A stretch of 64,000 bases of DNA from Eukaryota sp. GEM-RC1 (Eukaryota). This document shows positions 7,135-52,131 of this stretch, one piece after another. The stretch's first letter is position 1. Each line of letters begins with the position of its first letter. The stretch lies in contig JAUFOQ010000001.1 of assembly GCA_040285855.1 (NCBI GenBank), forward strand, positions 2,666,001-2,730,000, in the 5' to 3' direction. A program made the position numbers and the translations under genes. The notes beneath the pieces were generated by a model. That model was given only the letters and a program-made list of their open reading frames with translations, was not told the DNA's origin and made no database searches.

Positions 7135-8690
7135 ATGTCATTCTCTCTTCCCCCAACAGAAACTCTTTCTGTCATTCTGGATGATCCTTCCCTATGCAAT
7201 CAAACCATTACATTTGCAGAAGAGTCTATTGAAGTGAACAAATTCATCCTTGCTGCTCTTTCTACCTACTTTCGGTCTCTGTGGTTCTTGGAGTTTGGCG
7301 ATAGAGACGAAAACCCAATCGACTTCTCCCATCTACCTGTCCATTCCAACAACTTTCTTGCCTTCATCAAGTCCTTCTTCGGACGATCATTCACCCTCAA
7401 CGAGAACAATGCCTATGACTTCTACTACCTTGTCCACTACTTCCAAGTGGACAAACTTATTTTACAGGTGGAAAACCACCTCAACACTAATCTCGTGACC
7501 TGGGCTTGGTTAAAACCATTCATTAAGGAAGCAGATGAAAGGAATGACTTGAGAGCTCTGGAATTTGTTGGTCCTTTTTTTTCTAAGATTGATGACCTTG
7601 TGATTGATGAAGTGATGGAAATCACTACTGAAGGGTTAAAAACTCTTTCAAAATACTGCACTTCCACTCAATCTCAATCGTGGTTCGTCAAATCAACGGT
7701 GGAATCAATTTTGAATCAGAGTTTTGATTTGAATGAGTTTTTAAATGTTCTAAATTCTTGTTCAATTGAAGCTCTTTCTTATTCACAATGGGATGAGTTC
7801 CTGTTTGTTCCTTTAAAAGATGTTGAAGAATTGGAAGTCGATTTGATGAAGTTTTTGTTTACAAGAGTTAAGAATCTTTATTTTGACTCTTTGGTGAAGG
7901 AAGTTTCTGATTTAAAGGAAGAAGTATCTGAATTGACCTTACAGAATTTTGAATTAACTACCAAAAATTCGGATTTAGAAAGTAACAATTCAGACTTAAA
8001 CACACTTACCACTGATTTAACAACGGAAATTCATTATTTGAAGACAACAATTTCTGAGTTAGAAACAAACAATGCTCGTTTAACAACTGATATTCAGAAT
8101 TTGACCACTACAAACTCTTACGAAATTGCTAAACTAAAACAAGAAATTGAACAACTTAAAAAGTCAACTACAGAAACTCAACTGGTGTCTCAATCAGTTC
8201 CTCAGTCAAAGGGATTAGATTCTCCCCAACTAAGAAACATTCTCAGTTACAAGTTAGTGGGGATAGAAAGAGAGTTGTTGTTGGAAGTGGTGGTCATGGG
8301 GTCAGACATATCTTGGGAGAAGATCCACTTCTTCCAGGTAATGAGTATACTTGGAAGTTGAGGTACCAGGGTCTTACTGGTGGTCTTGTTGTTGGAGTCA
8401 TTGACGAGTCAAAGTTTAGTGTCGAAAGTAATTGTTATCAGAAAGGTCACTGTTCCTCCAATTGTGGTCTTGTTTGGGGTTGTCTCTCAGGAAACAAAAC
8501 TCAGTGGAATCCTGGTGAATTACTCGAAATCAGTGTAAATCTCATTAATCACACTTTAACAATCAAATCTGTGAGTAATTCTTCAATTAATCTTACTGGA
8601 ACTCTTCCCAGATTAAGTAGTGGTAATTATTATCCGTATGCTTATATGTATTACAGTAAACACGTAGTTGAAATCGTTGAATATACTTGA
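7135..8690 (+). CDS. BTB/POZ - coiled coil - SPRY/B30.2-like protein, copy 1 (one frameshift near 8210)
   Basis: BTB motif VNKFILAALSTYFRSL..YFQVDKL, heptad repeats, and a SPRY-like C-terminus (YTWKLRY..LVVGVIDES..PGELLEISVNL..YYPYA). One base is missing relative to intact copies 3 and 5. Confidence 0.85.
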
Positions 8691-9247
8691 TAACGTTTAT
8701 GTAAGTTTCCCAATTTGAAGTAGTGATTCAAATTTATGGATGATGACACTAATATAGAAGACATACTTCTGAAAATCGACATCAGTACAACTGTTGATGA
8801 GCGTGATTAGAACTTTTGCTTCAATATACGTAATTTAGCTTTTTGGTAATGTATGCATTGTTTTAAACAGCTTTAAAGAACATTAAAAACTAAAACTCAG
8901 CTAAACTCCCGGTATCTGTGCAATAGTACATAAGATATGAACTTTTAAATTTGTATAATTTCCAAGTGAACTTAAATTATGACAAAAACTCAAAATGGTA
9001 CAAATAAAATCCAAAAAGCGTCTAGTATCATTGAAAAACAAAAGAAACAACGACAACTTCGACATCAGAACGAACAATGGATTCATCTGCTTCCATCAAA
9101 ACGAAAAAGCCTTTGATAAATAGGTATAAACTATGAATTAATACTCTTTAATTTTCATCTATCGACTTATGACATACATTAAAAATTTTAAAAATTATTT
9201 CCAAAATAGATTGAAGAAGTGATGACGTATCACGTGCAAGACTAAAA

Positions 9248-9432
9248 TTATTCCAATATATACATAAAGATCTTTCTAGATTCAAATTATTCCAATTCTG
9301 ATTCAAATGTTACAGCATAGACTCTAAAAAACCAATCCTAATATTATTCCAAACAATACATAAAAATCTTTATAAATTCAAATTATTCCAATTCTGATTC
9401 AGGTCTTACAGCATAGACTCTAACTAACCAAT
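9248..9432. repeat. Imperfect tandem duplication (~95 bp unit) of the STT3 3' end and 3' flank
   Basis: ttcaaattattccaattctgattca..ttacagcatagactctaa occurs at ~9281 and ~9376. Confidence 0.75.
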
Positions 9433-10511
9433 GTGAAGAAGTATAAACTTCATCCAAATAATCAAATGAAATATCCTTATTTCCAATCTCCACGTTTCTA
9501 ACACGATCAAAACCAGCAGGTCGTTGATAATCAAGCTGAACTTCTCCAAATCTATAATAAACTGTCTTATACAACAACGAATTGAACATCGCTGGTGGTG
9601 CTTCCTTATCTACTCTATACTCTCCTCTTTCAGTTAGATAGTCTGACTCCTTAATATCACCAAACTCTCCACCTCCAATACGTACCATCCACAAGAACTT
9701 GTTAACGTCATCAGAAGCGAATCCAGAAAGACCACCAAAGAGAACTAAAATATAGTCAACATCTAGCTCTCTGAGAGTTTTAATAGCTTGGTCCTCAGGT
9801 AAAGCAAAGGCTCGACCAACAGTAGCAATAAGAGAGGTATTCCAGGTATTGTTGTCTACCAATACTGTTCTATTAGCCATACCACTAATTTGATATCCAT
9901 AATCCCACCAAGACATAATCCTGGCATCTTCAGGTGTATTGTTGTTCAACCAAGCATAAGCTTCTCTGAAATCATCAAAGATAACTTTAGATCCATCCCC
10001 ACCTCTAGCTGCTAGGACAACTGAAGGAGAGGAGTAAGCAGAGGAGGTAACCCATACACAATGACGAATGTAGAAAGCCAGAAGGATAGTGATGACAGCG
10101 ATTGCAGTGTATGAGACTTCAGTTGGAATAGTTTTGATTCCAATTTGAGGTTTGACAACCTTTTTAGGTTTTTTAGAATCTTTTGATGAAACAGGAGGAC
10201 TGACACGTGCCTTTTTCTTTTTCTTGAGTTTTCTTGACCATTTTGTCGTTGATTGCAGTGAAATGAGGCTGAAGTACTGATGAAATACCAATTCCACTCA
10301 ATATACACACGACTGGAGAAAGAATCAACATTAACCGAACCATTACTCCAGTGAAATACACAGAAGTAACAAAATAGAGTACAACAAACAGAGCTTCAGG
10401 AGTCAACTCCTTCTTAAACAAACAATAAACATCAAAAGGAGCAAAGATTGTTAGCAAATGAAGATCAAAGAAGAAATACCTGGATAAACACTTATCCTCA
10501 ATGTTTACCAT
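9383..10511 (-). pseudogene. STT3: STT3 oligosaccharyltransferase catalytic subunit, C-terminal half only
   Basis: [28 protein letters not shown] and YFTGVMVRLMLILSP motifs. One frameshift in a purine run near 10215. No N-terminal half is recognisable upstream of ~10490. Confidence 0.8.
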
Positions 10512-10742
10512 AGTAAAAGAGTCCTCATCATGTAGATGACGTAGAGAAGTGATGGTGAGAGGAAGTGCAATGGAACTCTGTTCTTAGTCGAAAGTAATAG
10601 AGTACAAAAGATAGAATCTTTGGATATGATGAGTAGGTGTAGGATGAATGACAGTGGTACGATGTCACTGTTTTGTTTTTTGACTTCTACTAGTAGTTGA
10701 GTTTAACTGAACTATTTCTCTTCTCATTTTGTCTTGATCCTG

Positions 10743-12270
10743 ATGTCGTTCTCCCTTCCCCCAACCGAAACTCTTTCTATTATCCTTGATGAACCGTCCC
10801 TATGCAACCAAACCATTACATTTGGAGAAGAGTCTATTGAAGTGAACAAGTTCATCCTTGCTGCTCATTCTACCTACTTCCGATCTCTTTGGTTCTTGGA
10901 GTTTGGTGATAGAGACGAAAACCCAATCGACTTCTCCCATCTCCCTGTTGACTCTAACAACTTTATTGCCTTCATCAAGTCCTTCTTCGGACAATCTTTC
11001 ACTCTCAATGAAAACAATGCTTACGACTTCTACTACCTTGTCCACTACTTTCAAGTGGAAAAACTGATTGTACAGGTGGAAAACCACATAAACACTAATC
11101 TCTTGACCTGGGCTTGGTTAAAACCATTCATTAAAGAAGCAAATGAAAGAACTGACTTGAGAGCTCTGGAATTCGCTGGTCCTTTCTTTTGTAAGATTGA
11201 TGACCTTGTGATTGATGACGTGATGGCAATCACTACTGAAGGGTTACAAACACTGTCAAAATACTGCACTTCTACTCAATCACAGTCGTGGTTTATCAAA
11301 TCACTGGTGGAATCAATTTTGAATCAAAGTTGTGATTTGAATGATTTTTTAAATGTTCTAAATTCTTGTTCAATTGAAGCCTTTTCTTTTCAACAATGGG
11401 ATGAGTTTCTGTTTGTTCCTTTAAAAAATGTTGAAGAATTGGAAGCCGATTTGATGAAGTTTTTGTTTACAAGAGTTAAGAATCTTTATTTCGATTCCTT
11501 GGTGAAGGAAAATTCTGATTTAAAGCAAGAAAATTCTGAATTAACTACTAAAAATTTGGATTTAGAAAGTAACAATTCTGACTTAAACACACTTACCACT
11601 GATTTAACAACGGAAATTCATTATTTGAAGACAACAATTTCTGAATTAGAAACAAACAATTCTGGTTTAACAACTGATATTCAGAATTTAACTAGTACAA
11701 ATTCTAACGAAGTTGCCAAACTAAAACAAGAAATTGAACAACTTAAAAAGACAACTACAGAAACTCAACCGGTGTCTCAATCAGTTCCTCAATCAAAATG
11801 ATTAGATTCTCCCCAACTAAGAAACATTCTCAGTTACAAGTTAGTGGGGATAGAAAGAGAGTTGTTTTTGGAAGTGGTGGTAATGTGGCTAGAAATATCT
11901 TGGGAGAAGATCCACTTCTTCCAGGTAATGTGTATACTTGGAAGTTGAGTTACCAGGGGCATACTGGTAATCTTTTGTTGGAGTCATGGACGAGTCAAAG
12001 TTTAGTGTCAAAGGTAATTGTTATCTGAATGCTCACTGTTTTCACAATAGTAATGGTGTTCGTGGTTGTCTCTCAGGAAACAAAACTAAGTGGAATCCTG
12101 GTGAATTACTCGAAATCAGTGTAAATCTCATCAATTCCACTTTAACAATCAAATCCGTGAGTAATTCTTCAATTAATCTTACTGGAACACTTCCCAGATT
12201 AAGTAGTGGTAATTATTATCCATATGCTTTGTTATTTTATAGTGATCATGTACTTGAAATAGTTGAATAA
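10743..12270 (+). CDS. BTB - coiled coil - SPRY-like protein, copy 2 (frameshifts near 11795 and 11973)
   Basis: Same architecture as copy 1. Both breaks are single-base losses in A or T runs when aligned to copy 5. Confidence 0.83.
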
Positions 12271-13397
12271 AGTTGATAACGTTTATGTAAGTTTCCTCAT
12301 TTGAAGCAGTGATTCAAATCTATGGTTGATGACACTAATAGAGAAGACTTTTACTTCTAAAAGTTGACATTAGTACACCTGTTGATGAGCCTGCTTTTAA
12401 TATAGAACTAGATCAAAAACTATTATTATTTAGTTTAGCATGACAGGAATTCGTGAAGCTTATCCTGATTAGAACTTTTGTTTCAATATACGTAATTTAT
12501 GCAGCTTTTTGGTAATATATGCATTGTTCTATACCACACTTGGGTATCACACTTTATAGTGACTTGACATTAGTGAGTCATATTAGTGAGTTATTTTTGT
12601 GAGTGATTTTTGGGTCAAAGTATGGTGTTATATTCTAATTGAAGAATAAACCAGATCAATGTTTACTATTATGTGTGTAATATCGAACGATTTATATGAT
12701 TCAATCTAAAAGAATGCAAGAGATCACATTTTACTTCTCTATCACATGACCACATCTATATACTACATAAAGGAACTCACATCTAGTAAAGCTTTAGCGA
12801 CGATTCAGGGAATTGTTTCACACACAGAATAACTAACAACTTATACTCTCACATGATCAAAACGGTTGCTCATCCTCTGTTTACGATTTTTCCGGTATTA
12901 TTTAGAAAATTGAGTCCACTTTTTCATAAACTAGCGTAAATTGAACATCCAAATGACATATTTCATATTCAACACGTTTCACATGTTTAAGAGTCATCAA
13001 TGGTTTTTTGTACTTATCTTGGTTCCACAGCGACATTGAAGATCATTAAACAGTAATGACACAATTCAACCCAAAAGTCATCTAGTATCAATCAAAAACA
13101 GAAGACACAATCAATTCTTGGGAACTAGCACCATCAATAGTTTTGGATTGTTATGTTGTTATCACAGTGGCAAAGCCTTTGATAAACAGGTATATTTGTT
13201 AATATCTATATTACTATTGATATTAGACCGAATGTGAACAATATTTAATGTTCTTCCCAAAATGAAATCAAAAAACTGGTGACGTAACTTGTGAGGTCCA
13301 AATATTATTCCTATCAATACTTAAAAAGATCTATAAATTCTACATAGACCATTTTGAAACTAGGTTATGACTAATTGTTGTGACCAGTGTAGTTATG

Positions 13398-13495
13398 CCA
13401 ATTCTGATTCAGGTCTTACAGCATAGACTCTAACTAACCAATGTGAAAAGGTATAAACTTCATCCAAATAATCAAAAGAAATATCCGTATTTCCA
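13398..13495 (-). pseudogene. STT3: Second short fragment of the STT3 3' end
   Basis: Near-identical to 9388-9485 (caattctgattcaggtcttacagcatagactctaactaaccaatgtga...). Confidence 0.75.
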
Positions 13496-13529
13496 TGGTT
13501 GTGATTTATCATGTACTGTTTCACTTAAT

Positions 13530-14200: not shown

Positions 14201-16831
14201 GGCTCAAAACGATCTGTAAGGAGGAATGCGACAAATTGATTTTTTTTGCAGTATATCAGATTAATGAATTTGATCAAAGGATTGATAAAGATCAACTGTT
14301 TGTCGATTCTGTGATCGTAAAAATCCAGTGTTTTAAAAAAGTGTGATTCAAGGTGTTATCTCTTGACCTCAGAAAAGCATTTGTCATTTACCAAGAAAGT
14401 CCTAGGACTCCGCCCAATCAAGAATGTAAACGTCATCACAATGAAGGGCGTTCAGAGGGTATACATTGTCTATACCAATTAATAGAATTGATGTTGTGCT
14501 TATGGCCTGTAGAGAGTGACGTTAATGTTGATGCATTCGAAATTATGATGGACACATATAACAACTCAATTACCTGAAAAAACGCATGATATTTGATGAA
14601 ATAGGATTATTGGTCGTCTAAGTTGATAGCAGAAAAGCTGCTTAACTGGTTGAACTAGCTTAATTTCTAATGGATCAAATATAGTTGTCCAATTTCTAGT
14701 TTTGGCATTGATGTAAAGAACTACAAAATTAGCTGCACAGTACAAAAATTGCTGGTAAGAATATGGACAAAACTGTGAGTTTTGTTACGGATCCATATGC
14801 TTTACTATATGGGTTAGATCCACATAGTTAGATGCTTTACATCATAACCTATGATGCTTTACATCATCACCATGTTATTTCATCATCTGTCATTCTTACT
14901 ATAATCCAGTTAATTTCATTAGGACTAAACTAACCAATGACAAAAAACGTCATAAGTGCCAAAAACGATGAGTTTCATGGCTTTGTGCGGACATCGAAAA
15001 CTTATGTAGGCACTTACAAACATTAAAAGATGATCAACCGTCAATCAATAATAATGGCATTTTTTTGTTTTCCGTCCAACATTCGACTATAACTTTGTAA
15101 TAAGTGGTCTGCTGAGTGTTTACTTAAAAACCGTTAGTCTTACTCAATTTTTTTTGCCAAAAAGAGTTTCAACTAGTGATAGTACCTACAAAACAAACAT
15201 GGATCAAGATTGAAGTGGAAGGTCAACTGTTATTGTCTTCAGTGACATCATGGGACATTGGAGAAAAAAATAGTGCAGTAGTCCAATTTGTTTGTTTAGT
15301 TAGAATTATTTAATTGTTGTAAATAAATACATGTTTCTTATCTACTATATTTGAGTTCAGCTTGTTGAGCTTTAAAATAATTACGTGGGTTCACACCCCA
15401 AACAAGATCTAACTCAATAATGAAACTTACTTTCATTATATTTACATTCAATATTGTTACTTTTCTTATCGTGTTTTCCGTGATAGAAAGCAATTTGAAT
15501 TTAAAAGATACCAAAACAAAACAACACAACTCAGGTACAAAAGATCAAAAAATGATCAAAAAAAAAGAACACAATGTGAGTTAAATTTCGATACTATGTA
15601 TAATCATCAATCCATTGATACATTAGATCGTCTTTGTAGTTAATCTTCAACTAAATCCCAAGGAATGCCAATCCCCTCTTCAAAGCTAGCTCTGGTTAAA
15701 ACAAATACCACGAGGATATCATAGAGGTGATTATAAACAAAAGATTAGACTAGAGAAATCAATAAGATTGATTGAAAACGACTTACACGATTGCATTAAA
15801 TCAAAAACAACTGAGACATCCGACTAAAAATCTTCAAAGAATAGAAAGTAAGTCATTCTCAAGAGTAGAAGGGACGTCAATAGTGTAGTCAGTATGAAGA
15901 AGATGCCACGTGGCATAAGAAAGCTATCAAGTACTGAAGAGTATGATCACAATGATCATTGGTGAAGACTAAACTTATTCAACCCCAGGTAAAAGATAAT
16001 TAAAAGAAGGACGAGAAGGAAAGAGATGATGGGAATGTTAAACGAAAAGAATTACAAGAAGACTTATGAAAAGCGGAGTTCAAAGTGATGACGTGATACG
16101 TGAGCTAAGAGACTTCATTAAAGAAGGAAAAGGGAGCTATGATCTGGATCCAGACGGTGGAAGGGAACGTGAAGAGTATCTGCCATTCAAACAAGTTCTG
16201 TTTCAACTGAGAGGTTGTTTTGAGCCGCTAACCACATCACTTGTAACTGAGGTATTGAGTGGACTTGTCTAAGCGCAAAAAATTTCCCTATCTTTCTGAA
16301 TCACTGAACTATGTCTTTCTGCATCTCCTTCATTGTGTCTCTCTTCTTTATTGTGTATGCCTTGTCTTTATGTCTTTCCCACAATTTTTCTTGATCTTTC
16401 CACTCTTTCTTCATTCAGATCTGCCCTCCGTTGTCTTATAACCACCACTTCTTTTCGTCTGACTGATCATCCTGAATTTTGAAACTCATTTCAACTAAGC
16501 TCATCAATGAGACATTTTCAAGATGTTCTTCAGACTTTTCTCCACTACAAATGGATCGTTTCTATGGCTATTGTAGTTTGTAGTTTCTCATCGTGAGTTC
16601 TGTACTTTGGAGGAGAGCGACTTTGATACGATCTGTATCGTGTCCAAACTTCAGAGTGACCAACACTTCAATCACGTCATCATTTATTTATATTTTGAAT
16701 TTTATGTACTTTATTTCGTTGTTGTGTCAAGTGGTCATTGCTGAGTTGAACATATCATATTTCCGTTAAATTTGGGTGGTTTTGTGACTCCTCGTTTGAA
16801 ATTACTTCATAATGAATGGTCGAATTAACTA

Positions 16832-18938: not shown

Positions 18939-19139
18939 TATTTCAAGATGATATTTGAATTATTAATGTTGAGAGCAATTTTCTACATTATTGGTTGATT
19001 TACGACAATTTTAACTATTAACTATCCGAGATTACTCAATCTGAGGACTCAACGTGAAATACAAAGCTCATCGTTTATGTGATTTGTGCCAATATAAAAG
19101 AAATTAAGTCTAATTTTTCAAACAGTTAAAAAAAGCTCT

Positions 19140-24776: not shown

Positions 24777-26348
24777 ATGTCATTCTCTCTTCCCCCAACA
24801 GAAACTCTTTCCATCATCCTCGATGACCCTTCCCTCTGTAATCAAACCATTACATTTGGAGAAGAGTCTATTGATGTCCACCGAATCATCCTTGCTGCTC
24901 ATTCTACCTACTTCCGATCTCTTTGGTTCTTGGAGTTTGGTGATAGAGACGAAAACCCAATCGACTTCTCTCATCTCCCCGTTGATTCCAACCACTTTCT
25001 TGCCTTCATCAAGTCCTTCTTCGGACACTCTTTCTCTCTCAATGAAAACAATGCTTACAACTTCTACTACCTTGTTCACTACTTCCAAGTGGACAAACTG
25101 ATCGTACAAGTGGAAAACCACCTTAACACTAATCTCGTGACCTGGGCTTGGTTAAAACCATTCATTAAAGAAGCAAATGAAAGAAATGACTTGAGAGCTC
25201 TGGAATTCGTTGGTCCTTTCTTTTCTAAGATTGATGACCTTCTGATTGATGACGTGATGGCAATCACTACTGAAGGGTTAAAAACTCTTTGCAAATACTG
25301 TACTTCCACTCAATCTCAATCGTGGTTCGTCAAATCATTGGTGGAATCAATACTGAATCAAACTTTTGATTTGAATGAATTTTTAAATATCTTAAATTCT
25401 TGCTCAATTGAAGCCTTTTCTTTTCAACAATGGGATGAGTTTCTATTTGTTCCCTTAAAAGATGTTGAAGAATTGGAAGCCGATTTGATGAAGTTTTTGT
25501 TTACAAGAGTTAAGAATCTTTATTTTGACTCTTTGGTGAAGGAAGTTTCTGATTTGAAGGAAGAAGTATCTGATTTGAACATTCAAAATTCTGAATTAAC
25601 TACCAAATGTTCGGATTTAGAAAGCAACATTTCTGACTTAAACACACTTACTACTAATTTAACAACGGAAAACCATGATTTGAAGACAGAAATCTCGCAA
25701 TTGAAGACAAACAATTCTGATTTATCCATGCAAGTTTCTAGTTTGACAACTGATATTCAGAATTTAACTGCTACAACGTCTACCGAAATTACCAAACTAA
25801 GACAAGAAATTGAACAACTTAAAAAGACAATTACCGAAACTCAAGTGGTGTCTCAATCAGTTCCTCAATCAAAAGTGATTAGATTCTCCCCAACTAAGAA
25901 ACGTGATGAGTTACAAGTTAGTGGGGATAGAAAGAGAGTTGTTGTTCGAAGTTGGTATGGTGCAGTTAGAAATATCTTGGGAGAAGATCCACTTCTTCCA
26001 GGTAATGAGTATACTTGGAAGTTGAGGTACCAGGGGAATACTAGTGGTCTTGTTGTTGGAGTCATTGACGAGTCAAAGTTTAGTGTTGATAGTAATTGTT
26101 GGGAGAATGCTCACTGTTTCTACAATGGTAGTAAAGTTTTTGGATGTCTCTCAGGAAACAAAACTAAGTGGAATCCTGGTGAATTACTCGAAATCAGTGT
26201 AAATCTCATCAATCACACTTCAACAATCAAATCCGTGAGTAATTCTTCAATTAATCTTTCTGGAACTCTTCCCAGATTAAGTAGTGGAAATTATTATCCG
26301 TATGCTAGGTTACATTATATTGATCATGTACTTGAAATCGTTGAATAA
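24777..26348 (+). CDS. BTB - coiled coil - SPRY-like protein, copy 3 (intact)
   Basis: Uninterrupted ORF from the conserved ATG (MSFSLPPTETL) to VLEIVE*. Confidence 0.92.
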   Translation: MSFSLPPTETLSIILDDPSLCNQTITFGEESIDVHRIILAAHSTYFRSLWFLEFGDRDENPIDFSHLPVDSNHFLAFIKSFFGHSFSLNENNAYNFYYLVHYFQVDKLIVQVENHLNTNLVTWAWLKPFIKEANERNDLRALEFVGPFFSKIDDLLIDDVMAITTEGLKTLCKYCTSTQSQSWFVKSLVESILNQTFDLNEFLNILNSCSIEAFSFQQWDEFLFVPLKDVEELEADLMKFLFTRVKNLYFDSLVKEVSDLKEEVSDLNIQNSELTTKCSDLESNISDLNTLTTNLTTENHDLKTEISQLKTNNSDLSMQVSSLTTDIQNLTATTSTEITKLRQEIEQLKKTITETQVVSQSVPQSKVIRFSPTKKRDELQVSGDRKRVVVRSWYGAVRNILGEDPLLPGNEYTWKLRYQGNTSGLVVGVIDESKFSVDSNCWENAHCFYNGSKVFGCLSGNKTKWNPGELLEISVNLINHTSTIKSVSNSSINLSGTLPRLSSGNYYPYARLHYIDHVLEIVE

Positions 26349-27250: not shown

Positions 27251-29081
27251 TTATTCAACTATTTCAATCATATGATCACTAAAATACAAAAAAGCATATG
27301 GATAATAATTACCACTACTTAATCTGGGAAGAGTTCCAGTAAGATTAATTGAAGAATTACTAGTAGATTTGATTGTTAAAGTGTAATTAATTAGATTCGC
27401 ATTGATTTCGAGTACTTCACCAGGATCACACTTAGCCCTGCTTCCTGAGAGACAACCATAAACAGCACCATCAATGTTAATACAGTGACCATCCGCATAA
27501 CAAAAACTACCAACTTTAAACTTTGACTCATCAATGACTCCAACAAACAAATTCCGCGTAGTCCCACCATACCTCAACTTCCAAGTATAATCAACACCCG
27601 GAAGCAGTGGATCTTCTCCCAAGATACTTCTATTCTGTTCCCATTCAATTCCAAAAACAACTTTAAGTTTATCCCCACTAACTTGTAACAGAGGGTGTTT
27701 TCTTGATTCTGAGAATTCAATCATTTTTGATTGAAAACTTGACTGACTCTTTTCAAGTGTTCAATTTTTTGTAGTAGACTGGTGTTATCAGCAACAATTT
27801 TAGAATTTGCAGCTTTCAAACGAGAGTTTTCAGAAGTAATCTCTGAGTTTTTTTGAGAAAGGGTGTTTGAATTCAATTCTAATTTGGAGATCCTATTTTT
27901 TAAATTTGTAGAAGACTGTTGATACTCGGATAACTCACGTTCTTTTGCAGTAATTGCTGATTGCAGTGACAAAACTCGATTGGACAAATCCGTAATCTGA
28001 TTTGATAATTTCTCCAAATCAGCAGAAGATCGCTCATTTACATGACTGTTTAATTCATCTTCAACTGACTCAAATTCCTTTGGAAATTCTTCTGATAGTT
28101 TGTTCAAAGATTCATATATATCTTCTAAGCTTGGTCTTTCATTCATGTCCACGTGGCAACAACTTGAAACAAGATCAACAATACATTGATCAATATTTGG
28201 AGGAAATTTCAATTGCAAGGGCGACATTTTGGCTCCACAAATTGCTGCCACATCATATCCTTCAAAAACTTTTTCATTACAAAACAATTCATAAAGCATC
28301 AGACCAAGGCTGTAGATATCAGATTTGAGACACCTTCTATTTGAGAGAGCTTCAGGAGCTACATATTTCAAAGTAAAACATAGTTGATTAGTTCTGTGAG
28401 CAGTTGTTTCAGAAAGAACTTTCGAAGTACCAAAGTCACTCAATTTAGCTGCACCTCCTACAATCAACACGTTTTCTGGTTTAAGATCGCCATGTAGAAT
28501 GTTGTGGGAGTGCAAATGTAGAAGTGCTTCTACGATCTGTTTAGCATAAGTTAAGGAGAGAGGTGAAACTGAGGAAGGTACAATAAGGGAAGCGGACGCC
28601 TTTTCCATAACAATGCCAAGTTGATTCTCGGGTAACCAAACAAGGCCAAAGACACGCAAAACACACGGATGGTTGAGATTAAACATGGTCAGCAGTTCCT
28701 TACGGAGTCTAACTCTGTCTTTTCCGAGTTACAGAGAACAACCTTTATGGCAACCGCTGCATTGCTCCACGTCCCAGAGTAAACGCGAGATGACCCACCA
28801 ACACCAAGAGGTTTAGAGAAATCTATTTGGAGATCGTTACCAGGAATTTCACAAAGAAAGTCTCCCGATTGAGAAGAAGTAACAACATCTAGTAATCCAA
28901 TATTAGTTACTATCGTGGGAAGTTTTGGGCTGCGGCAGAAAGGACATCCCGATACTGAGGAAGCACATATCAAACATGATGTGTGTTGATTAAGACAGAT
29001 GACAGTGGGAATGCGATCTTTGCCATTAAAAGACTCTTCACAGATTTTGCACTGTACATGTAGGATATTTGACAAAGACAT
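27251..29081 (-). CDS. RING finger - protein kinase (TKL-like) - coiled coil - SPRY-like protein
   Basis: RING CKIC..C..QH..CLIC..CPFC; kinase LGVGGSSRVY, VAIK, HGDLKPEN, DFG, APE, SDIYSLG; C-terminus of the same family as the BTB genes. Three track ORFs join after single-base fixes in runs at 28720-28723 and 27734-27737. Confidence 0.85.
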
Positions 29082-36184: not shown

Positions 36185-36883
36185 TCACTCAATTTAGAAT
36201 TAATTTGTGTCTTACCCTGAGTTTTAGTCACAAATTTCAATTACTGATCAACAGAAGTCAAATATTTAGTTAATAACGTCAATCATTCTGACTCTCAATT
36301 TATGTACATGTACTATTTCAGTATATTTACTGCTTTAATCTGCTTTTGTAAGAATTTGTTTATGTATTTGTTTCTTGATAGAAATTAGAGTGAACAAACA
36401 TGGTGGACAAAAGGCTACTGAAAACAGCTTAAAGTGATACTTCACATAGAATTAAAGATTCGTTAATTAGAATGGCAGTGAGAATGTCAATTTTTGAAAA
36501 ATATTCCAAATTAACAACTGTTAATTGTTTTTAGTCTGAGGAATGAAATGGCAACATTTTTGAAACAAAACTGATCAAATTACTTCTGAACAATAGAGAT
36601 AGTTTGGTTATGATTTATGGCGTATCACTAGGGGTTGAATCAGTCTGTTTAGGAAAGAACATGGAAGCTACTTGGGGGGATACGTTGAAAGAGGTTTCTG
36701 TTCTAGAAGAACTTGCTGTCTGAATGACAAAAGAATCTTTGGGATCACAGGAGACACCACCTGAAGAACTTTCTGAGACAAACTTGTCCATCCCACAATG
36801 TCTTTATGAGCCAGAACAAACTAGAAGATAATCTTTCTTTTTGTTGAAACCTCCAGTTCATTTCCTTCTCGCTTTGATTCTTG

Positions 36884-38400
36884 CTGTCATTCTGGATGAT
36901 CCTTCCCTCTGTAATCAAACCATTACATTTGGGGAAGTGTCTATTGAAGTGAACAAGTTCATCCTTGCTGCTCATTCTACCTACTTCCGATCTCTTTGGT
37001 TCTTGGAGTTTGGTGATAGAGACGAAAACCCAATCGACTTCTCCCATCTCCCTGTTGATTCCAACAACTTTCTTGCCTTCATCAAGTCCTTCTTCGGACA
37101 ATATTTCACCCTCAATGAAAACAATGCTTACGACTTCTACTACCTCGTCCACTACTTCCAAGTGGACAAACTTATTATACAAGTGGAATACCACCTAAAC
37201 ACTCATCTCGAAACCTGGGGTTGGTTAAAACCATTCATTAAAGAAGCAGATGAAAGACATGACTTAAGAGCTCTGGAATTCGTTGGTCCTTTCTTTTCTA
37301 AGATTGACGACCTTGTGATTGATGACGTGATGGCAATCACTACTGAAGGGCTAAAAACTCTTTGCAAATACTGTACTTCCACTCAATCTCAATCGTGGTT
37401 CGTCCAATCAATGGTGGAATCAATTGTAAATCAAAGTTTTGATTTGAATGAGTTTTTAAATGTTCTAAATTCGTGCTCAATTGAAGCCTTTTCTTTTCAA
37501 CAATGGGATGAGTTTTTGTTTGTTCCTTTAAAAGATGTTGAAGAATTGGAAGCCGATTTGATGAAGTTTTTGTTTACAAGAGTTAAGAATCTTTATTTTG
37601 ACTCCTTGGTGAAGGAAGTTTCTGATTTGAAGGAAGAAGTGTCTGAATTAACTACCAAATGTTCGGATTTAGAAAGCAACAATTCTGAATTAAACACACT
37701 TACTACTGATTTAACAACGGAAATTCATGATTGGAAGACAGAAAACTCGCATTTGAAATTAAACAATTCTGATTTATCCATGCAAATTTCCGGATTAACA
37801 ACTGATATTCAGATTTTAACTGCTACAAACTCTAACGAAATTGCTAAACTAAAACAAGAAATTGAACAACTTAAAAAGACAACTACAGAAACTCAAGTGG
37901 GGCATCAATCAGTTCCTCAATCAAAAGTGATTAGATTCTCCCCAACTAAGAAACACTCTCAGTTACAAGTTAGTGGGGATAGAAAGAGAGTTGTTGTTGG
38001 GGATGGTGTGGATAGAAATATCTTGGGAGAAGATCCACTTCGTCCAGGTAATGAGTATACTTGGAAGTTGAGGTACCAGGGGCATACTAATAGTCTTATT
38101 GTTGGAGTCATTGACGAATCAGAGTTTAGTGTTGAAGGTCATTTTTATGGGAACGGTCACTGTTTCCGCAATGGTAATAATGTTTGGGGCTGTCTCTCAG
38201 GAAACAAAACTAAGTGGAATCCTGGTGAATTACTCGAGATCAGTGTAAATCTAGTTAATTACACTTTAACAATCAAATCCGTGAGTAATTCTTCAATTAA
38301 TCTTACTGGAACTCTTCCCAGATTAAGTAGTGGTTATTATTATCCATTTGCTTTGTTGTATCATAGTGATCATGTACTTGAAATAGTTGAATACAATTGA
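36884..38400 (+). pseudogene. BTB - coiled coil - SPRY-like copy 4; open frame but the start codon is deleted
   Basis: Homology begins at VILDDPSL. The ATG and about 11 codons are missing while a leader-like sequence remains upstream. Confidence 0.75.
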
Positions 38401-43986: not shown

Positions 43987-44329
43987 CAAATGTAGAGAAT
44001 CAAGACGAACGGAGATATCCTCATCAAAATGACTCTCATATGTATGAGTGGCTTCACCTCTGCTTGTTTACTGTAGTACTGTGTTAGTGATAAATCCAAT
44101 ATCTTTCGTCCATTGTGGATTCCCTTTTTAACAACGACCTATAATCGTATTACCAAGAAAAATCAACTCATACTGAGGGAGTGGATTGTATGTAGGTAGA
44201 TAAAGCATGATTATGCTGATTGAGTAAAACAATTCCGATTGGTCACTCAGGTTGTTGAATCAAAAAACTCTGATGTACACGATAATAAAAAACAGAAAGG
44301 GTTCTAGATTCTAGAAAAAAAATGCAAGC

Positions 44330-47169
44330 TTATCTACTAGTAGACCGTGGAGATTTTCTTGTTTTTCGAGGAAGAAGATGACCCAACTCTGTGATTAGAT
44401 CACTTCTTGACACTGGTTTTGTCATCCATGAGTTCATTCCGCTTTCAATGGTATGGTATCTGGATTCCACGGATGCATCACCAGTTAGACAGAGAATCTT
44501 TACCTCAGAAAGATTGTTAATGTCTTCATATCTACGTATATCCTTTGCAGCTTGAGTTCCGGAGTACGGCATTCTGTAGTCTAAACAAACGAGATCAAAA
44601 GCACTTGGATTCTCCCGGTATTTTTCTACAGCTTTATCACCATTTTCTACTAGAGTCACCACACATCCCAATGAACCTAACAACAGACTAATGACTTTAC
44701 GATTGAGAGGATGATCATCTGCAACAAGGATTGAGAATTGTCCTATTGTTAGAGTGTAATCACAACAAACCTCCGTTTACAGGAGTTCTTAGAGTTTGAG
44801 TCTGACGGTGATGAATGTACGGAGTAGACCGTTTTCGTCCGCTTAAGAACTGCTTTACCATCTTATATGTAATTGGAGAATGAACAGTGAAGTACTCGCC
44901 ATAGGATCCTTTGGGATCAATTACCATTACTGGTGATCCTTCGAACCCTGCCTTGATTAAAGGAATGAACTCTGAAAAGACTTCGTGATCAACAAAGACG
45001 AATTGCTGAAGAGCTGCATCTATTGCTGTTATTCTGTTCAGTATTGTTTGTCTTGATGGCTCTTCAAATCCATAACACTTCGTTTTCATTAACCTCAGTT
45101 GAGCCAGAAGAAAATTGGACAGTGGTCGTCTTCTACAAAACACAAAGCATTGGTGATCTCGGAAGTAGGTTGGACCTGCTGCTTCATGAGGATTTACCAG
45201 AGGAAGAGTCAGTTGCAATTTGAACACCGATCCTTTGCCTTCCCTACTTCTAACGTTAATGTTAGAACCCATCATTCTTGCAAGAGAACCTGAGATAGCG
45301 AGCCCTAACCCTGAACCTCCGTATTTGGTAGTGATTTGCACATTGACTTGAGTAAAAACATCGAACAATTTGCCATGGTCTTCAGTTGAGATACCGATAC
45401 CAGTATCGTGACAAGAAAGAATAAATGAAATTTTGCCATCAGCGATTGACTGTTTTCTGAGTTGAATTCTGACATAGCCATTGTGAGTAAACTTTAGTGC
45501 ATTAGATACCAGATTAATTAAAATTTGTTGTAGTCGATTACGATCACCGACTACCATCACATCACAGACAGGGTCTACAGTGCTCACTAGTTCAACTGAT
45601 ATTTTTGATCTGGCAATGTCTGAATGCATTTCGACCACATGATCAACAATTGACGGCAGATGAAACTCTGTCTGGTCAAGCTCAATCTTACCACTTTCGA
45701 TTCTGGTAAAATCAAGAATGTTAGTGATAATAGAGAGCAACGATGACGAGGAATGATTCACAATCTCCAGTATTCTTTGGGATTCATCACTAAGGACTGA
45801 ACTTTGCTCTAATAAAGACAACATTCCAATTATACTGGGATAAATGATAAGGAAAACATACGAATTGAGTGCTGAAATGAGGAAAAGTGGGGAAACAAAC
45901 GTGTTCGCTATGATTAGACTGTTGCAGTTGAACATACAATTTCATGAGATACTGTTGCAAAAAACATTGATTGTGCACTGTTTGCTTGATTTCCAGCTAC
46001 AATAGCATTTTTTAGCTCTGTTAGGTCAACCAGCACGCCTGATACTTCCAATACATTACCTTCTTCATCAAACTTTGTTGGACGACCAGACCTTCTTATC
46101 CAAATCAAGCGTGGAGGATCATGAAAGGTATAATGATGTTCATCAAAGGTTGGAAACTCTTTTCCTTCACACACATCATTCCATGACGAATCCCATAGCT
46201 CTAACTGCTCCGGTACTAACTTGCTCCTTAACTCATCATAAGAAACTATGGAAGAGTTTAGTCCTTGCATTTCTTGCGTGGTTTTGCTGGGATAAATTGG
46301 AAATGAACATAATATACGTTAGACAGAAGATACGATTTTCACAATCGAGGCGCCAAAATCCAAACTTTGCAAGATGTTGTGCTTCTGTTAAATCATTCTT
46401 TATCAATTGAACTTGTTTTTTCGTCTTATGCAGAGCTTTCACCAACTTCTCCTTCTCCTTGAACACCAATTCATGTTCTTTGATATCTGAGGTTGGTTTG
46501 ATAACACCAAAGACTCTAACAGTTTGACCATTTAACTCAGCTCCAAAAGCTTGGCAACTGATTAGATCAGTATTGCCATTAATGAGGAACGGTGCAGTGA
46601 AGGTAGCATCAGAGGTCACCCCATTGAGCATGTCATCAAACTGCTGTTGGATGTGAGTTCTATGCGAAAAGTCAAAGTGATGCATAAAGTCTTGTAAAAT
46701 CTTTGGAATATCAGTAGGAGTGTTGAAAATTTTCAAATATCTGTCATCAACATCAACGAGAAGGATTGTAAATGAATGTTGACACTCCACACAGTGACAA
46801 GCATTTCTCCACCAACCAAGATGACGTGGTTTCTTTTGGCAGATGTTTGACGTTTTCAAATGCAATTAGTGCCTCAAACGAGTTTAGTGCAATAACATTG
46901 ATGAGGAAAGTGCGGGGTACTCCAGGTGGGGATTGAAGAGTGATGATCTGAGCTTCCATTGGAACCGAGTGTGAGAGACATTGTATGAGTTTTTGGGTGA
47001 ACAGAGAGTCATCGTAGAAGTCTTAAAAGAGTGTCTGAGTGTCTAATGATATCAGGGATTCAACATCAGTATCAAGATGAAAAGCCAACTTACGAGAAAC
47101 ATCAACAATTATCCCATCGACGTTGACAAGAGCAATCGCTGAAGGGGATTCGAGTAGTGGTCGTGGCAT
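44330..47169 (-). pseudogene. Hybrid histidine kinase copy 2, 5' part damaged
   Basis: Same domains and introns (46287-46317, 45908-45937, 45872-45900, 45835-45861, 44743-44770). In-frame TAA at 47023-47025 and a net 8-nt deletion near 46755 relative to copy 1. Confidence 0.8.
45835..45937 (-). other. Three introns (30, 29, 27 nt) with 7-nt and 10-nt micro-exons
   Basis: Exons CGAACAC (45901-45907) and CACTCAATTC (45862-45871) give SHEIRTPLNSIIG. Confidence 0.9.
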
Positions 47170-47744
47170 CCTGGGTGGAGAAACAAGACTGACAGAGATA
47201 TCCTAGCACAAGCGTATATAAATGACTTATAGATCAGATCCAGTAACTTACTGTAAATAACTATGTTCGATTAACGCGTTGTTGAACTGTGACACTACTC
47301 CATAAGAAACACGCACTATATTGAAGATACAGCGGGTGACTTGCGATTTGTAGGTATAAACTAGGAGGTTCTATATAACACGAACAAGGATTTATCATTA
47401 ACAATAGTTACTCCCAATTGCTTGTGAGAAGTACAAGTGTATTAATTCTGAAGCAATGTCCTGTGATCAGATCAAACGACATAAGATGCACGTTTGAGCA
47501 CATACATACACAATAAAGTGTACTAGAATTTTTGGTCGAGTAGGCGACTAGTTTACTTGTAAAATTTATTGTTCGGTGTGAAGTGTAGTTGAAGCTCTAA
47601 TATTTCTACGAGTGGAGTTTCCCCCATCCCTAGACATCATGGTGTTGTTCTTTAGATCTCATACAATAATGTGACTAATAACGAAACTATTGTAAAAGAT
47701 TTACATAAACAATATACTTGGACACCTACTGAATGAAGAAAGTG

Positions 47745-48200
47745 AATTAAATGTGGCAAAAAACACACAACAAGAAAACAAACTATCAAACAAAGAGGAT
47801 TAAAATAAACTATCAAACGAACTACCTAATTGCCTCCAAACAATATAGACCAAAATCGAATCAACAAATCTATACATCGACTTCAAAATCAAAAAACTGA
47901 ATCATGAACACTACTTCTAAAAGAGGTAAAACGGTTACAATTCAATAACTTTATAGGTGTCATTGATCTGGCATTTAAAATTATGCGGAAGATTATCAGG
48001 CCAAACAAATCACCATAAACGCATATTGAACGACCAAGAATTATCATAACGAAGAAAAGATCGTATGCTTGAGGGATTTGAGTAATCAGACATGAAGCAG
48101 AACTGTGAGAAATATCCATCAGAAGTTCTGCAAAATCTGAATTTTTTCCGTAATTCAAGTAATCCTTTAATAGTACGAACGAGGTTACTTTTGCTCTTGA
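47745..48200 (-). mobile_element. Internally deleted 3' fragment of a CRE-like element
   Basis: DFAELLMDISHSSASCLITQIP..LLNC..SVHDSV, plus a 3' end matching 55890-56040. Confidence 0.65.
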
Positions 48201-50601: not shown

Positions 50602-52131
50602 ATGTCATTCTCCCTTCCCCCAGCAGAAACTCTATCTATTATCCTCGATGAACCTTCTCTCTGCAACCAAACCATTACATTTGGAGAAGAGTCTATTGAA
50701 GTACACAGAATCATCCTTGCTGCTCATTCTACATACTTTCGGTCTCTTTGGTTCTTGGAGTTTGGTGATAGAGACGAAAACCCAATCGACTTCTCCCATC
50801 TCCCTGTTGACTCTAACAACTTTCTTGCCTTCATCAAGTCCTTCTTCGGACGATCTTTCACTCTCAATGAAAACAATGCTTACGACTTCTACTACCTCGT
50901 CCACTACTTCCAAGTGGACAAACTGATCGTACAAGTTGAAAACCACCTCAACACTAATCTCATGACCTGGGCTTGGTTAAAACCATTCATTAAAGAAGCA
51001 GATGAAAGAAATGACTTGAGAGCTCTGGAATTCGTTGGTCCTTTCTTTTTTAAGATTGACGACCTTGTGATTGATGACGTGATGGCAATCACTACTGAAG
51101 GGTTAAAAACTCTTTGCAAATACTGTACTTCCACTCAATCTCAATCATGGTTCGTCAAATCAATGGTGGAATCAATTTTAAATCAAAGTTTTGATTTGAA
51201 TGAATTTTTAAATGTTTTAAATTCTTGTTCAATTGAAGCCTTTTCTTTTCAACAATGGGATGAGTTTCTGTTTGTTCCTTTAAAAAAAGTTGAAGAATTG
51301 GAAGCCGATTTGATGAAGTTTTTATTTACAAGAGTTAAGAATCTTTATTTTGACTCTTTGGTTAAGGAAAATTCGGGTTTGAAGGAAGAAAATTCTGATT
51401 TAACCACGGAAATTCATGATTTGAAGACACAAAATTCTGGATTATCTGAGGAAAATCATGATTTCAAAGTAGAAATTTCTCATTTGAAAACATTAGTTTC
51501 TGATTTAGAAACAAACAATGCTGATTTATCCACGAAAATGTCTAGTTTAACTACTACTAAGTCTAACGAAATAACTAAACTACAACAAGAAATAGAACAA
51601 CTAAAAAAGACAATTGTAGAAACTCAACTGGTGTCTCAATCAGTTCCTCAATCAAAAATGATTAGATTCTCCCCAACTAAGAAACATTCTCAGTTACAAG
51701 TTAGTGGGGATAGAAAGAATGTTGTTATTAGAAGTGGTGGTTTTGAGGCTAGATGTATTTTGGGAGAAGATCCACTTCTTCCAGGTAATGTTTATAGTTG
51801 GAAGTTGAGGTACCAGGGGACTACTGATGGTCTTTATGTTGGAGTCATTGACGAGTCAAAGTTTAGTGTTGATGGGTATTGTTATGGGAATGCTCACTGT
51901 TTCTACAATGGTAGTGGTGTTTATGGTTGTCTCTCAGGAAACAAGTTCAAGTGGAATCCTGGTGAATTACTCGAAATCTATGTAAATCTCATCAATCACA
52001 CCTTAACCATCAAATCCGTGAATAATTTTTCAATTAATCTTACTGGAACTCTTCCCAGATTAAGTAGTGGTAATTATTATCCATTTGCTAAGTTTTATCA
52101 TAGTGAACATGTTCTTGAACTCGTTGAATAA
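50602..52131 (+). CDS. BTB - coiled coil - SPRY-like protein, copy 5 (intact)
   Basis: Uninterrupted ORF from the conserved ATG (MSFSLPPAETL) to VLELVE*. Confidence 0.92.
   Translation: MSFSLPPAETLSIILDEPSLCNQTITFGEESIEVHRIILAAHSTYFRSLWFLEFGDRDENPIDFSHLPVDSNNFLAFIKSFFGRSFTLNENNAYDFYYLVHYFQVDKLIVQVENHLNTNLMTWAWLKPFIKEADERNDLRALEFVGPFFFKIDDLVIDDVMAITTEGLKTLCKYCTSTQSQSWFVKSMVESILNQSFDLNEFLNVLNSCSIEAFSFQQWDEFLFVPLKKVEELEADLMKFLFTRVKNLYFDSLVKENSGLKEENSDLTTEIHDLKTQNSGLSEENHDFKVEISHLKTLVSDLETNNADLSTKMSSLTTTKSNEITKLQQEIEQLKKTIVETQLVSQSVPQSKMIRFSPTKKHSQLQVSGDRKNVVIRSGGFEARCILGEDPLLPGNVYSWKLRYQGTTDGLYVGVIDESKFSVDGYCYGNAHCFYNGSGVYGCLSGNKFKWNPGELLEIYVNLINHTLTIKSVNNFSINLTGTLPRLSSGNYYPFAKFYHSEHVLELVE

Follow-up and report, generated by a model that had tools for sequence, protein, structure and literature searches.

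The locus analysed here, a 64,000-nucleotide window of contig JAUFOQ010000001.1, raises the question of what a free-living anaerobic flagellate, a metamonad, does with multiple BTB-coiled coil-SPRY genes that differ from copy to copy in four short patches. A sequence-only reading had proposed that they form a TRIM-like intracellular immune repertoire. The five copies on which it was based are present, all on the + strand (Table 1), and one of them, c3, served as reference.

Table 1. Family members in the window and features of the reference copy c3.
Feature	Position in window	Strand	Remarks
Copy c1, BTB-helical-coiled coil-SPRY gene	7135..8690	+	One-base break at about 8211
Copy c2	10743..12270	+	Two one-base breaks (about 11798, about 11975)
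Copy c3 (P0001), reference	24777..26348	+	Intact 523-aa ORF
BTB domain of c3, residues 19-119	24831..25133	+	Pfam PF00651, E 3.4e-13
phi-x-D/E Cullin-3-binding motif of c3, F54-G55-D56	24936..24944	+	
Post-BTB helical region of c3	25137..25523	+	BACK-like (lead only)
Coiled coil of c3, variable length	25524..25823	+	Predicted parallel in-register homodimer
SPRY/B30.2 domain of c3	25878..26345	+	Model, fold search, profile search
V1 patch of c3, residues 389-399	25941..25973	+	Hypervariable: 395-397
V2 patch of c3, residues 420-426	26034..26054	+	Hypervariable: 421, 423, 424, 426
V3 patch of c3, residues 438-455	26088..26141	+	Hypervariable: 440, 442, 443, 449, 453, 455
V4 patch of c3, residues 509-516	26301..26324	+	Hypervariable: 511, 513, 514
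Sixth member c6: RING-like finger, protein kinase, coiled coil, family SPRY domain	27251..29081	-	
Copy c4	about 36880..38400	+	Open from about codon 16 to stop
Copy c5 (P0010)	50602..52131	+	Intact 509-aa ORF

Nucleotide identity among the five copies is 88-96%. The earlier description of them as nearly identical even at silent sites was overstated, given dS values of 0.30 (BTB domain), 0.21 (helical region) and 0.13 (SPRY framework). Only c3 and c5 are intact; in the assembly the other three, like c6, are either broken or truncated. The frameshift of c1, directly upstream of its SPRY domain, and the two of c2 all fall within short homopolymer runs, and these one-base breaks are likely assembly errors. 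Database model P0037 agrees with c1 outside its break, and c1 and c2 have about 110 bp of 3′ flank in common. Copy c4, identical in sequence to model P0015, is missing a start codon and its first ~15 codons, the start region being decayed or different. The SPRY domain of c6 (27251-27734, - strand) closes a RING-kinase gene with two frame breaks, at about 28710 and about 27750-27800; unbroken paralogs of this gene are P0014, P0045 and P0064. The sequence-only reading had mentioned neither these defects nor the sixth domain. The window also holds a non-LTR reverse transcriptase and DDE elements.

The five copies belong to a large family, as had been supposed. Database protein searches recovered 110 proteins (76 + 34), 108 of which are named as coming from Skoliomonas sp. 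GEM-RC, and 90 of the 110 (82% of found members) are carried by a single 3.98-Mb contig; locus-tag numbers were not taken as positions, because two models for copies 30 kb apart differ by 346. Judged by these sequences, the family appears to be lineage-specific and to comprise about a hundred near-identical genes. None of 516 pattern matches in metagenome contigs and none of 109 in viral contigs was confirmed as a relative. A literature search on Skoliomonas, BTB/SPRY proteins in protists and TRIM origins found no description of the family among the papers listed, and the main text and 6 searchable supplements of the Skoliomonas genome paper make no mention of SPRY, BTB or cullin.

At the N-terminus, PF00651 was found in 48/48 aligned members, which had been chosen for carrying it. 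The Cullin-3-binding phi-x-D/E motif (described in PMC6484134) is retained, in agreement with the proposed recruitment of Cullin-3: F54 and D56 of c3 align with F54 and D56 of the vaccinia adaptor A55, and F-x-D/E is present in 63 of the 69 proteins matched by the anchoring pattern. PDB profile matches of the BTB domain include the Cul3 adaptors A55, KBTBD2 and KBTBD4 (E 4.5e-8 to 2e-4). The best PDB sequence match is ZBTB5, and the matches include BTB domains of ZBTB transcription factors, most of which are not known to act as Cul3 adaptors. Helices are predicted at residues 123-135 and 139-149, after the BTB domain of c3; Atlas matches of this region to BACK scored 0.84-0.86, below the 0.9 mark, and BACK was not among the Pfam families listed. 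The coiled coil that follows is predicted to be a parallel dimer which would hold a pair of SPRY heads and a pair of BTB domains at opposite ends. The dimer model scored 0.46 against 0.00 for the best control, with runs agreeing in at least 78% of contacts and pLDDT of at least 83; the mark applied was reached by 20/30 solved microbial homodimers and 1/23 single chains, and by 17/29 eukaryotic homodimers, but only 1/7 of those without an older solved relative. No confident BTB-BTB contacts were seen in the model. By inspection, the N-terminus of the BTB-SPRY protein has no signal peptide, hydrophobic leader or membrane segment.

The last ~160 residues had been taken for a SPRY domain, and structure prediction, fold search and profile search bear this out. 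The c3 domain model (pLDDT 86) retrieved SPRY/B30.2-bearing chains as the listed Foldseek matches, and a search with the full-length protein gave a list filled by SPRY matches. In VIA-align the model superimposed on a solved SPRY domain with Z 16.8 and rmsd 2.5 over 152 aligned residues, against a Z of only about 10 for lectins. The top fold match is SS15 (PDB 8bv0), a cyst-nematode SPRYSEC. Identity to these fold matches is only 10-20%; the Pfam search with the C-terminal domain returned no direct match, and SPRY was missed when the PDB was searched with a single sequence or a narrow profile. A widened profile matched RanBP9 (E 4.7e-7), HERC1 (2.2e-6) and SS15 (1.2e-5), Atlas SPRY clusters matched at 0.96, and the homologs P0158 and P0157 match PF00622 directly. 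On the strength of model, fold search and profiles, we assign the C-terminal domain of the family to SPRY/B30.2.

The four variable patches do exist: of the 20 peptides reported for them across the five copies, 19 were recovered in place on the + strand. The exception, the V2 peptide of c2, spans a one-base break which the sequence-only reading did not mention; the residue before QG is S-Y there. Of 113 SPRY domains examined, 20 were partial and were dropped. In the 93 near-complete domains that remained, mean entropy is 2.13 bits for patch sites against 0.77 for all others, 19 of the 20 sites that vary most belong to patches, and the four-patch combination is unique in 92 of the 93, a pattern far beyond chance. 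The patches had been called rich in Y, W, G, N and S. The 16 hypervariable sites are indeed enriched in tyrosine (13.2% vs 3.8%) and tryptophan (5.0 vs 1.5), and also in F (9.0 vs 2.9) and H, but show no excess of G, N or S. Along predicted strands, several of the variable sites alternate with invariant positions. In the model the variable sites occupy loops and the ends of strands and follow the order of SPSB loops B-E; the spacing from V2 to V3 is 19, as against 18 for SPSB T111-Y129. Going by strand order and spacing, the four patches may share one SPRY face.

Selection was measured on the five window copies, using DNA from one genome, and the 16 hypervariable sites were defined from 85 other paralogs, independently of these copies. 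At those sites dN is 0.875 and dS 0.144 (bootstrap 95% range of pN-pS 0.22-0.54), so that site dN/dS lies above 1 and not at or below it, in keeping with the sequence-only reading. Values for the contiguous patches are 0.40 and 0.14, for the rest of SPRY 0.066 and 0.126, and for the BTB plus helical region 0.042 and 0.246; the BTB half is under purifying selection. When compared with the highest regional dS (coiled coil, 0.32), the ratio is about 2.8 at the 16 sites and only about 1.2 for the contiguous patches. Codon site models, in our own implementation, favoured positive selection (M2a vs M1a, 2dL 26.3, p 1.9e-6; M8 vs M8a, p 4.5e-6), with 2dL of 25.9-32.8 across all 15 tree topologies and 7 sites at a posterior above 0.5, all in patches, though such tests can be inflated by gene conversion. 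Run on the BTB plus helical region and on the coiled coil, the same models gave no positive-selection signal. Positive selection is confined to the patches, at about 16 SPRY positions.

Exchange between paralogs may also have left traces. Homogenisation has been uneven, since dS is lower in the SPRY framework than in the BTB domain, and some gene models are mosaics of others, one of them without any private substitution. Across 92 SPRY protein domains, a PHI-like test for global recombination gave no signal (p 0.41-1.0); clustered fast sites bias this test. A longest-run permutation that ignored site rates was discarded. In a rate-corrected test of 4186 pairs, 3 reached a family-wise p of about 0.01 or less, and c1/P0016 reached only 0.08. 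No template copy was found within the window that would mark the genes as targets of a diversity-generating retroelement. Adenine-specific mutagenesis does not fit the patches, where 13 A columns are invariant and A is absent from 20 of 64 variable columns, and both retroelement-type mutagenesis and general hypermutation were rejected because silent sites have diverged as far in the patches as in the framework.

As an analogy, "TRIM-like" stands for a coiled coil followed by a C-terminal SPRY domain. It fails as a statement of membership in the TRIM (RBCC) family: the N-terminus is a BTB domain, no RING or B-box is among the Pfam families listed, and the coiled coil is predicted to be parallel; TRIM coiled-coil dimers are antiparallel. 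The same C-terminal arrangement is found in fish finTRIM, btr and trim35/hltr proteins and in TRIM5alpha, and according to excerpts of PMC3137616 the likeness extends to hypervariable selected loop sites in the fish B30.2 expansions and TRIM5alpha, including the loop after the second PRY strand, and to recombination among btr paralogs. Unlike these TRIMs, the present proteins have no RING or B-box, and the BTB domain would recruit an external RING via Cullin-3.

Nematode MATH-BTB and F-box adaptors are a closer functional precedent than TRIMs. In these genes positive selection acts in the substrate-binding and not in the Cullin-binding domains (Thomas 2006, as summarised in part of PMC4334554). 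The nematode and plant expansions, as portrayed in the same excerpts, are large birth-and-death families of cullin adaptors, as ours would be, and have in common with it positive selection on the substrate domain only and a proposed role in foreign-protein degradation. The present family is no member of the MATH-BTB group, as it has no MATH domain: its putative substrate domain, a SPRY, lies at the C-terminus after a long coiled coil, whereas theirs is an N-terminal MATH. Its host is a unicellular metamonad, and 82% of the members found lie on one contig. SPSB1/2/4 and GUSTAVUS use SPRY as substrate receptor of a cullin-RING ligase, the role proposed here; according to excerpts of PMC2923778, loops on one face hold the ligand, and the key residues lie in loops B, C, D and E, with which V1-V4 agree in order and spacing. 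They differ in being few, conserved and not hypervariable, with a fixed peptide ligand and a SOCS box that engages Elongin BC. Cyst-nematode SPRYSECs are likewise an expanded group of SPRY proteins whose stable scaffold bears a hypervariable surface under positive selection (PMC5071358, in part), but they are SPRY-only and are secreted into a host, and the organism studied here is free-living. A secreted effector of this type was rejected, as BTB and coiled coil precede SPRY and no hydrophobic leader is evident by inspection. BTB-BACK-Kelch adaptors (KBTBD2, KBTBD4, A55) share a BTB domain with phi-x-D/E and subsequent helices; in our family SPRY replaces the Kelch propeller, a 100-residue coiled coil intervenes and the BACK match is weak.

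Since the surface predicted to grip targets is different in nearly every copy and has changed under positive selection, the family likely serves as an intracellular recognition repertoire. We think it probable, with considerable reserve, that this lineage-specific, positively selected family encodes Cullin-3 substrate receptors that deliver fast-evolving foreign proteins to ubiquitination in an arms race. The BTB domain with its phi-x-D motif and following helices would dock Cullin-3/Rbx1, the four patches would form the canonical SPRY ligand face, and each paralog would bind a different target, a protein of a virus, of an intracellular or ingested bacterium or of another parasite. Duplication, selected point substitution and segment exchange between paralogs would supply the diversity, with no dedicated hypermutation machine. 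Little is known of how free-living protists ward off giant viruses, intracellular bacteria and mobile elements, and the family offers a concrete candidate in a cultured organism: its predicted ligase-docking half is constant, selection has acted at about 16 positions of a known binding fold, and about 100 variants occur naturally. If the receptor reading is true, ubiquitin-based surveillance of foreign proteins, as in nematodes, plants and fish, would extend to a deep-branching metamonad.

The opponents could instead be the organism's own mobile elements, whose transposon or retrotransposon proteins would be recognised and degraded by the same machinery. The assembly with the named paralogs is 48% repetitive, compared with 28% and 4.5% in two relatives (PMC11316075), no close homolog from these less repetitive relatives was among the protein matches listed, and the window itself carries the elements mentioned above. 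S. litria, however, is 55% repetitive and yet the source of none of the close matches and of only 6 of 30 distant matches looked up, and no direct link joins the family to any element; we regard this explanation as unlikely. Quite unlikely, in our judgement, is a role as sensors or decoys in which SPRY binds a foreign ligand and oligomerisation through BTB or coiled coil signals to RING-kinase-SPRY or MLKL-like partners without Cullin-3. The family SPRY does cap kinase and MLKL_N-kinase proteins, kinase-bearing SPRY domains are scattered among BTB-bearing ones in a quick tree (83 of 130 inner branches open; one 4404-aa match left out), and ZBTB5 is the best PDB match of the BTB domain; against this stand the retention of phi-x-D and the existence of a BTB-BACK-SPRY relative.

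The family might also tell self from non-self when cells or nuclei meet, as in mating or fusion compatibility, its diversity being kept by frequency-dependent selection; positive selection and mosaic genes are typical of allorecognition loci too. Here the diversity is spread over about 100 paralogs in one genome, not alleles at one locus, and the N-terminus bears no signal peptide or membrane segment by inspection, which makes this idea improbable. Equally improbable is a neutral birth-and-death expansion in which unconstrained loops vary and gene conversion and assembly chimeras sharpen the contrast, even with many broken copies, the mosaic models (one lacking private substitutions) and the lower dS of the SPRY framework in its favour. 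Under neutrality dN/dS cannot rise above 1, yet at the sites defined independently dN amounts to six times the local dS and roughly three times the highest dS of any region, and the alternation of variable with invariant sites along predicted strands and the enrichment of aromatics point the same way.

Beyond the receptor family, related SPRY domains in skoliomonads occur behind RING-kinase, RING-B-box (TRIM-like), B-box-UBA and MLKL_N-kinase modules, which are ubiquitin and cell-death contexts. A larger scenario, which we put forward only tentatively and doubt somewhat more than we believe, is that skoliomonads independently built a TRIM-like innate immune system: the SPRY module would have been placed in Cullin-3 (BTB), RING-kinase, RING-B-box and MLKL-like death modules, with ~100 genes concentrated on one chromosome and diversified at the four patches and by segment exchange, yielding a combinatorial intracellular repertoire against viruses or bacteria. 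Conventional relatives exist as well: P0148, a BTB-BACK-SPRY protein, is encoded by the organism that carries the family, and P0157, a BACK-SPRY protein with 31% identity (E 1e-42), comes from the amoebozoan Gocevia. The RING-B-box-SPRY proteins occur in Skoliomonas litria, and they bear on TRIM origins, because TRIM subfamilies other than the MATH type, or the tripartite motif itself, are treated as animal-specific in excerpts of PMC3503706 and PMC2533329.

The hypervariable BTB-coiled coil-SPRY family is real. With the SPRY domain as query, 76 long and 34 short proteins were retrieved; 108 of the 110 carry the organism name 'Eukaryota sp. GEM-RC1', which denotes Skoliomonas sp. GEM-RC, an anaerobic, bacterivorous, free-living metamonad of soda lakes (PMC11603281), and the other 2 are the window's own. 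Two of the database models, P0037 and P0015, match c1 and c4, so the window presumably comes from this organism. A single 3.98-Mb contig, about 12% of the 33.5-Mb assembly, carries 90 of the 110. Since some split genes may have been counted as two and near-copies are hidden by 90% clustering, a fair count is 'about 100'. The BTB half as query gave 80 matches, all from GEM-RC1, and an exhaustive profile search gave 56 representatives, of which 30 were looked up for source (19 GEM-RC1, 6 TZLM1-RC [S. litria], 1 Gocevia fonbrunei). Among the data searched, the young expansion is restricted to GEM-RC.

Variation was counted in the 93 of 113 sequences with near-complete SPRY domains. The four hypervariable patches, V1 to V4, occur there in 90, 86, 90 and 86 distinct versions and in 92 distinct combinations, with a mean entropy of 2.13 bits as against 0.77 outside. 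At the 16 SPRY sites above 2.5 bits, Y and W are enriched, as the sequence-only reading had claimed for the patches, along with F and H, but G, N and S, which it had also named, are not. When 48 full-length proteins are compared, mean entropy is 0.65–0.68 bits in each of the BTB, the helical region and the SPRY framework, and patches hold 15 of the 17 sites that exceed 2.5 bits. In the five window genes (c1 to c5), patch variation at codon positions 1, 2 and 3 is 0.33, 0.31 and 0.18, and the BTB has the opposite pattern. For the same genes, dN and dS are 0.875 and 0.144 at the 16 sites (defined from 85 other paralogs), and 0.042 and 0.246 in the BTB plus helical region. Codon site models, in our own implementation, favored positive selection on the SPRY (M2a vs M1a p 1.9e-6; omega about 10 at about 5% of sites) on 15 of 15 topologies, with 7 of 7 flagged sites in patches; applied to the BTB and to the coiled coil, they detected none. 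These are five sequences with uneven homogenization (dS 0.13 in the SPRY framework vs 0.30 in the BTB), and relative to the highest regional dS the ratio is still about 2.8 at the 16 sites and only about 1.2 for whole patches. The earlier claim of focused diversification held, with variability concentrated in patches and dN/dS above 1 at the 16 sites in the five window genes.

Hypermutation and DGR activity were ruled out as the patch source, because silent divergence is equal in patches and SPRY framework, invariant adenines are present inside patches, and no template copy was found in the 64-kb window. Segment exchange among paralogs is probable from the sequences, the cleanest mosaics being of a kind that assembly chimeras could imitate. 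The informative sites of the database model P0012 agree with P0054 for 12 in a row and after that with P0011 for 39, and not one residue is private to P0012 (p 6e-12 for this order, the best among 103,458 triples). P0081 matches P0040 perfectly over residues 412–510 but not in V1 or V4 (family-wise p about 0.01), and c1 is exactly like P0016 in V2 and V3 but unlike it in V1 and V4 (p about 0.08). The N-terminal half and the SPRY share a nearest neighbor in 4 of 48 proteins, and a quick tree intersperses kinase-bearing with BTB-bearing SPRYs (9 rows require 8 changes, and strong branches force at least 3 of these). Against exchange, a global PHI-like recombination test was null.

In the reference protein (c3), Pfam detects a BTB at residues 19–119 (E 3.4e-13) and otherwise only generic coiled-coil matches; in the last 160 residues it has no match. 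AlphaFold2 lays out a BTB, a helical region, a single long helix (230–349), a disordered linker and a beta-sandwich, which has a pLDDT of 86 when folded alone. Foldseek matches of the sandwich are SPRY/B30.2 domains (RanBP9/10, TRIM PRYSPRY and SPSB chains), and in structure alignments it pairs with SPRYSEC SS15 at Z 16.8 (rmsd 2.5, 152 aligned), the top 32 being SPRY chains and lectins following at Z about 10. A profile broadened with distant homologs matched RanBP9 (E 4.7e-7), and the ESM Atlas returned SPRY clusters at 0.96. Structure prediction, fold search and profile search thus confirm the SPRY fold proposed earlier for the last ~160 residues. By model secondary structure, V1 is the loop following the second PRY strand, succeeded by an arginine conserved in 55 of 67; V2 is the hairpin preceding a conserved VGV strand; V3 comprises the loop after that strand, a short helix and two paired strands in which variable and fixed residues alternate; and V4 is formed by the last part of the penultimate strand together with its loop. 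For SPSB1, the reported peptide contacts are R77 in loop B, T111 in loop C, Y129 in loop D and W217 in loop E (PMC2923778), and in TRIM5alpha the hotspot for specificity is the beta2-beta3 loop (PMC3137616). Because the patches parallel loops B–E in order and in C-to-D spacing, and because of that hotspot, V1–V4 would share one ligand face.

F54 and D56 of the BTB profile align with the residues of the same number in vaccinia A55. These belong to the phi-x-D/E motif, a Cullin-3 determinant (PMC6484134), and 63 of the 69 proteins where the anchoring pattern matched carry F-x-D/E. For the helical region, BACK is a lead only. A two-copy model of residues 8–300 scored 0.46, as against 0.00 for the best control, with contact agreement of at least 78% and a pLDDT of at least 83, which clears the tool's threshold. 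In calibration, that threshold was reached by 20 of 30 microbial and 17 of 29 eukaryotic homodimers, by only 1 of the 7 eukaryotic ones that lack an older solved relative, and by 1 of 23 single chains. The predicted parallel dimer has an in-register parallel coiled coil (250–299) as its interface, and the model shows no confident BTB-BTB contacts.

We consider it reasonably probable that such a dimer docks Cullin-3 via its BTB end while its two variable SPRY heads face a target that would then be ubiquitinated. Since selection acts on the putative binding face alone and the host is a bacterivore, the targets would be fast-evolving foreign proteins. Mobile-element proteins are unlikely as targets, and a family of signaling sensors or decoys is quite unlikely. 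Recognition of self versus non-self seems very improbable, and to the same degree so does neutral expansion plus conversion.

In its proposed mode of action the family would parallel the nematode MATH-BTB/F-box expansions (PMC4334554) and the fish B30.2 expansions, and in the variability of its surface it is similar to SPRYSECs (PMC5071358). As identities for the family, TRIM, MATH-BTB, SPRYSEC and DGR target were each rejected. Searches of the literature, largely of open-access papers, did not find it described. What is new is that a metamonad combines BTB, coiled coil and SPRY on such a scale, that the family is concentrated on a single contig, and that kinase, TRIM-like and MLKL-like proteins share its SPRY module.

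Architectures among the distant homologs show that an older BTB-BACK-SPRY type exists outside the GEM-RC lineage; they include BTB-BACK-SPRY (P0148), BACK-SPRY (P0157, 31% identical to P0148), RING-kinase-SPRY, RING-B-box-SPRY (P0136, P0149; weakly P0162), B-box-UBA-SPRY (P0153), Ras-BTB-SPRY (P0138) and MLKL_N-kinase-B-box-SPRY (P0126). The RING-B-box proteins with a C-terminal homolog of the family SPRY (P0136, P0149 and P0162 of TZLM1-RC, Skoliomonas litria; P0140 of GEM-RC1) have a TRIM-like architecture in a metamonad, of a kind that PMC3503706 and PMC2533329 take to be specific to animals. P0126 (TZLM1-RC), a 1115-aa model joining an MLKL_N-like domain, kinase, B-box, SPRY and hydrophobic C-terminal region, is possibly a sensor-executioner fusion or else a fused gene model. 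In P0138 and P0122, gene models fuse a Ras-family GTPase to the family's BTB or helical region; these may be real or merged predictions.

The window is eukaryotic DNA (36% GC, standard code). Its five copies are 85–89% identical at the DNA level, and just two of them, c3 and c5, have a complete ORF. Of the 20 patch peptides in the sequence-only reading, 19 were located, and the remaining one spans a c2 break. All c1 and c2 breaks sit in short homopolymer runs and are likely assembly errors, because the published assembly holding the named paralogs used Illumina-corrected Nanopore reads (R9.4 flow cell; PMC11316075). Similarity between copies reaches only about 20–35 bp 5′ of the start and 15–110 bp beyond the stop, which makes them gene-sized duplicates set among unrelated genes.

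Features of the window, with positions in its own numbering
Feature	Position	Strand	Remarks
c1	7135-8690	+	intronless; one single-base break; matched by model P0037
c2	10743-12270	+	intronless; two single-base breaks
c3	24777-26348	+	intronless; complete ORF
c4	about 36880-38400	+	intronless; lacks first ~15 codons; matched by model P0015
c5	50602-52131	+	intronless; complete ORF
c6	29081-27251	-	RING-like finger-kinase-coiled coil-SPRY gene; two frame breaks
21-bp imperfect palindromes	8713, 12299, 38433, 52167	+	after c1, c2, c4, c5
STT3 oligosaccharyltransferase gene, C-terminal part	9383-10583	-	frameshift in A-rich run
Second STT3 3′ remnant	13393-13495		after c2
DDE transposon	16827-18943		Pfam DDE_3/DDE_1; 29-bp inverted repeat at ends
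Non-LTR retrotransposon	52820-55991	+	RVT_1
Related non-LTR fragments	33569-34591, 39170-40187		include 95% identical inverted pair
Two leucine-rich-repeat genes	4167-6224, 35279-36184	+	LRR_6
RCC1-repeat gene	990-2894	-	
Putative hybrid histidine kinase, three copies	41131-44067, 44330-47204, 61638-64000	-	83-87% identical; frame breaks in each

The STT3 gene lacks its 5′ part at the point where c2 begins, which, with the second remnant, suggests local tandem duplication of c1/c2 plus flank. The SPRY of c6 is 63% identical to that of c3; c6 has paralogs without breaks (P0014, P0045, P0064), and the coiled-coil tail and SPRY of P0014 derive from the BTB clade. The three kinase copies we take, by eye from motifs, to encode a receiver domain as well. 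The palindrome, conserved about 25–35 bp 3′ of the stop in four copies and absent after c3, is perhaps a 3′-end processing signal.
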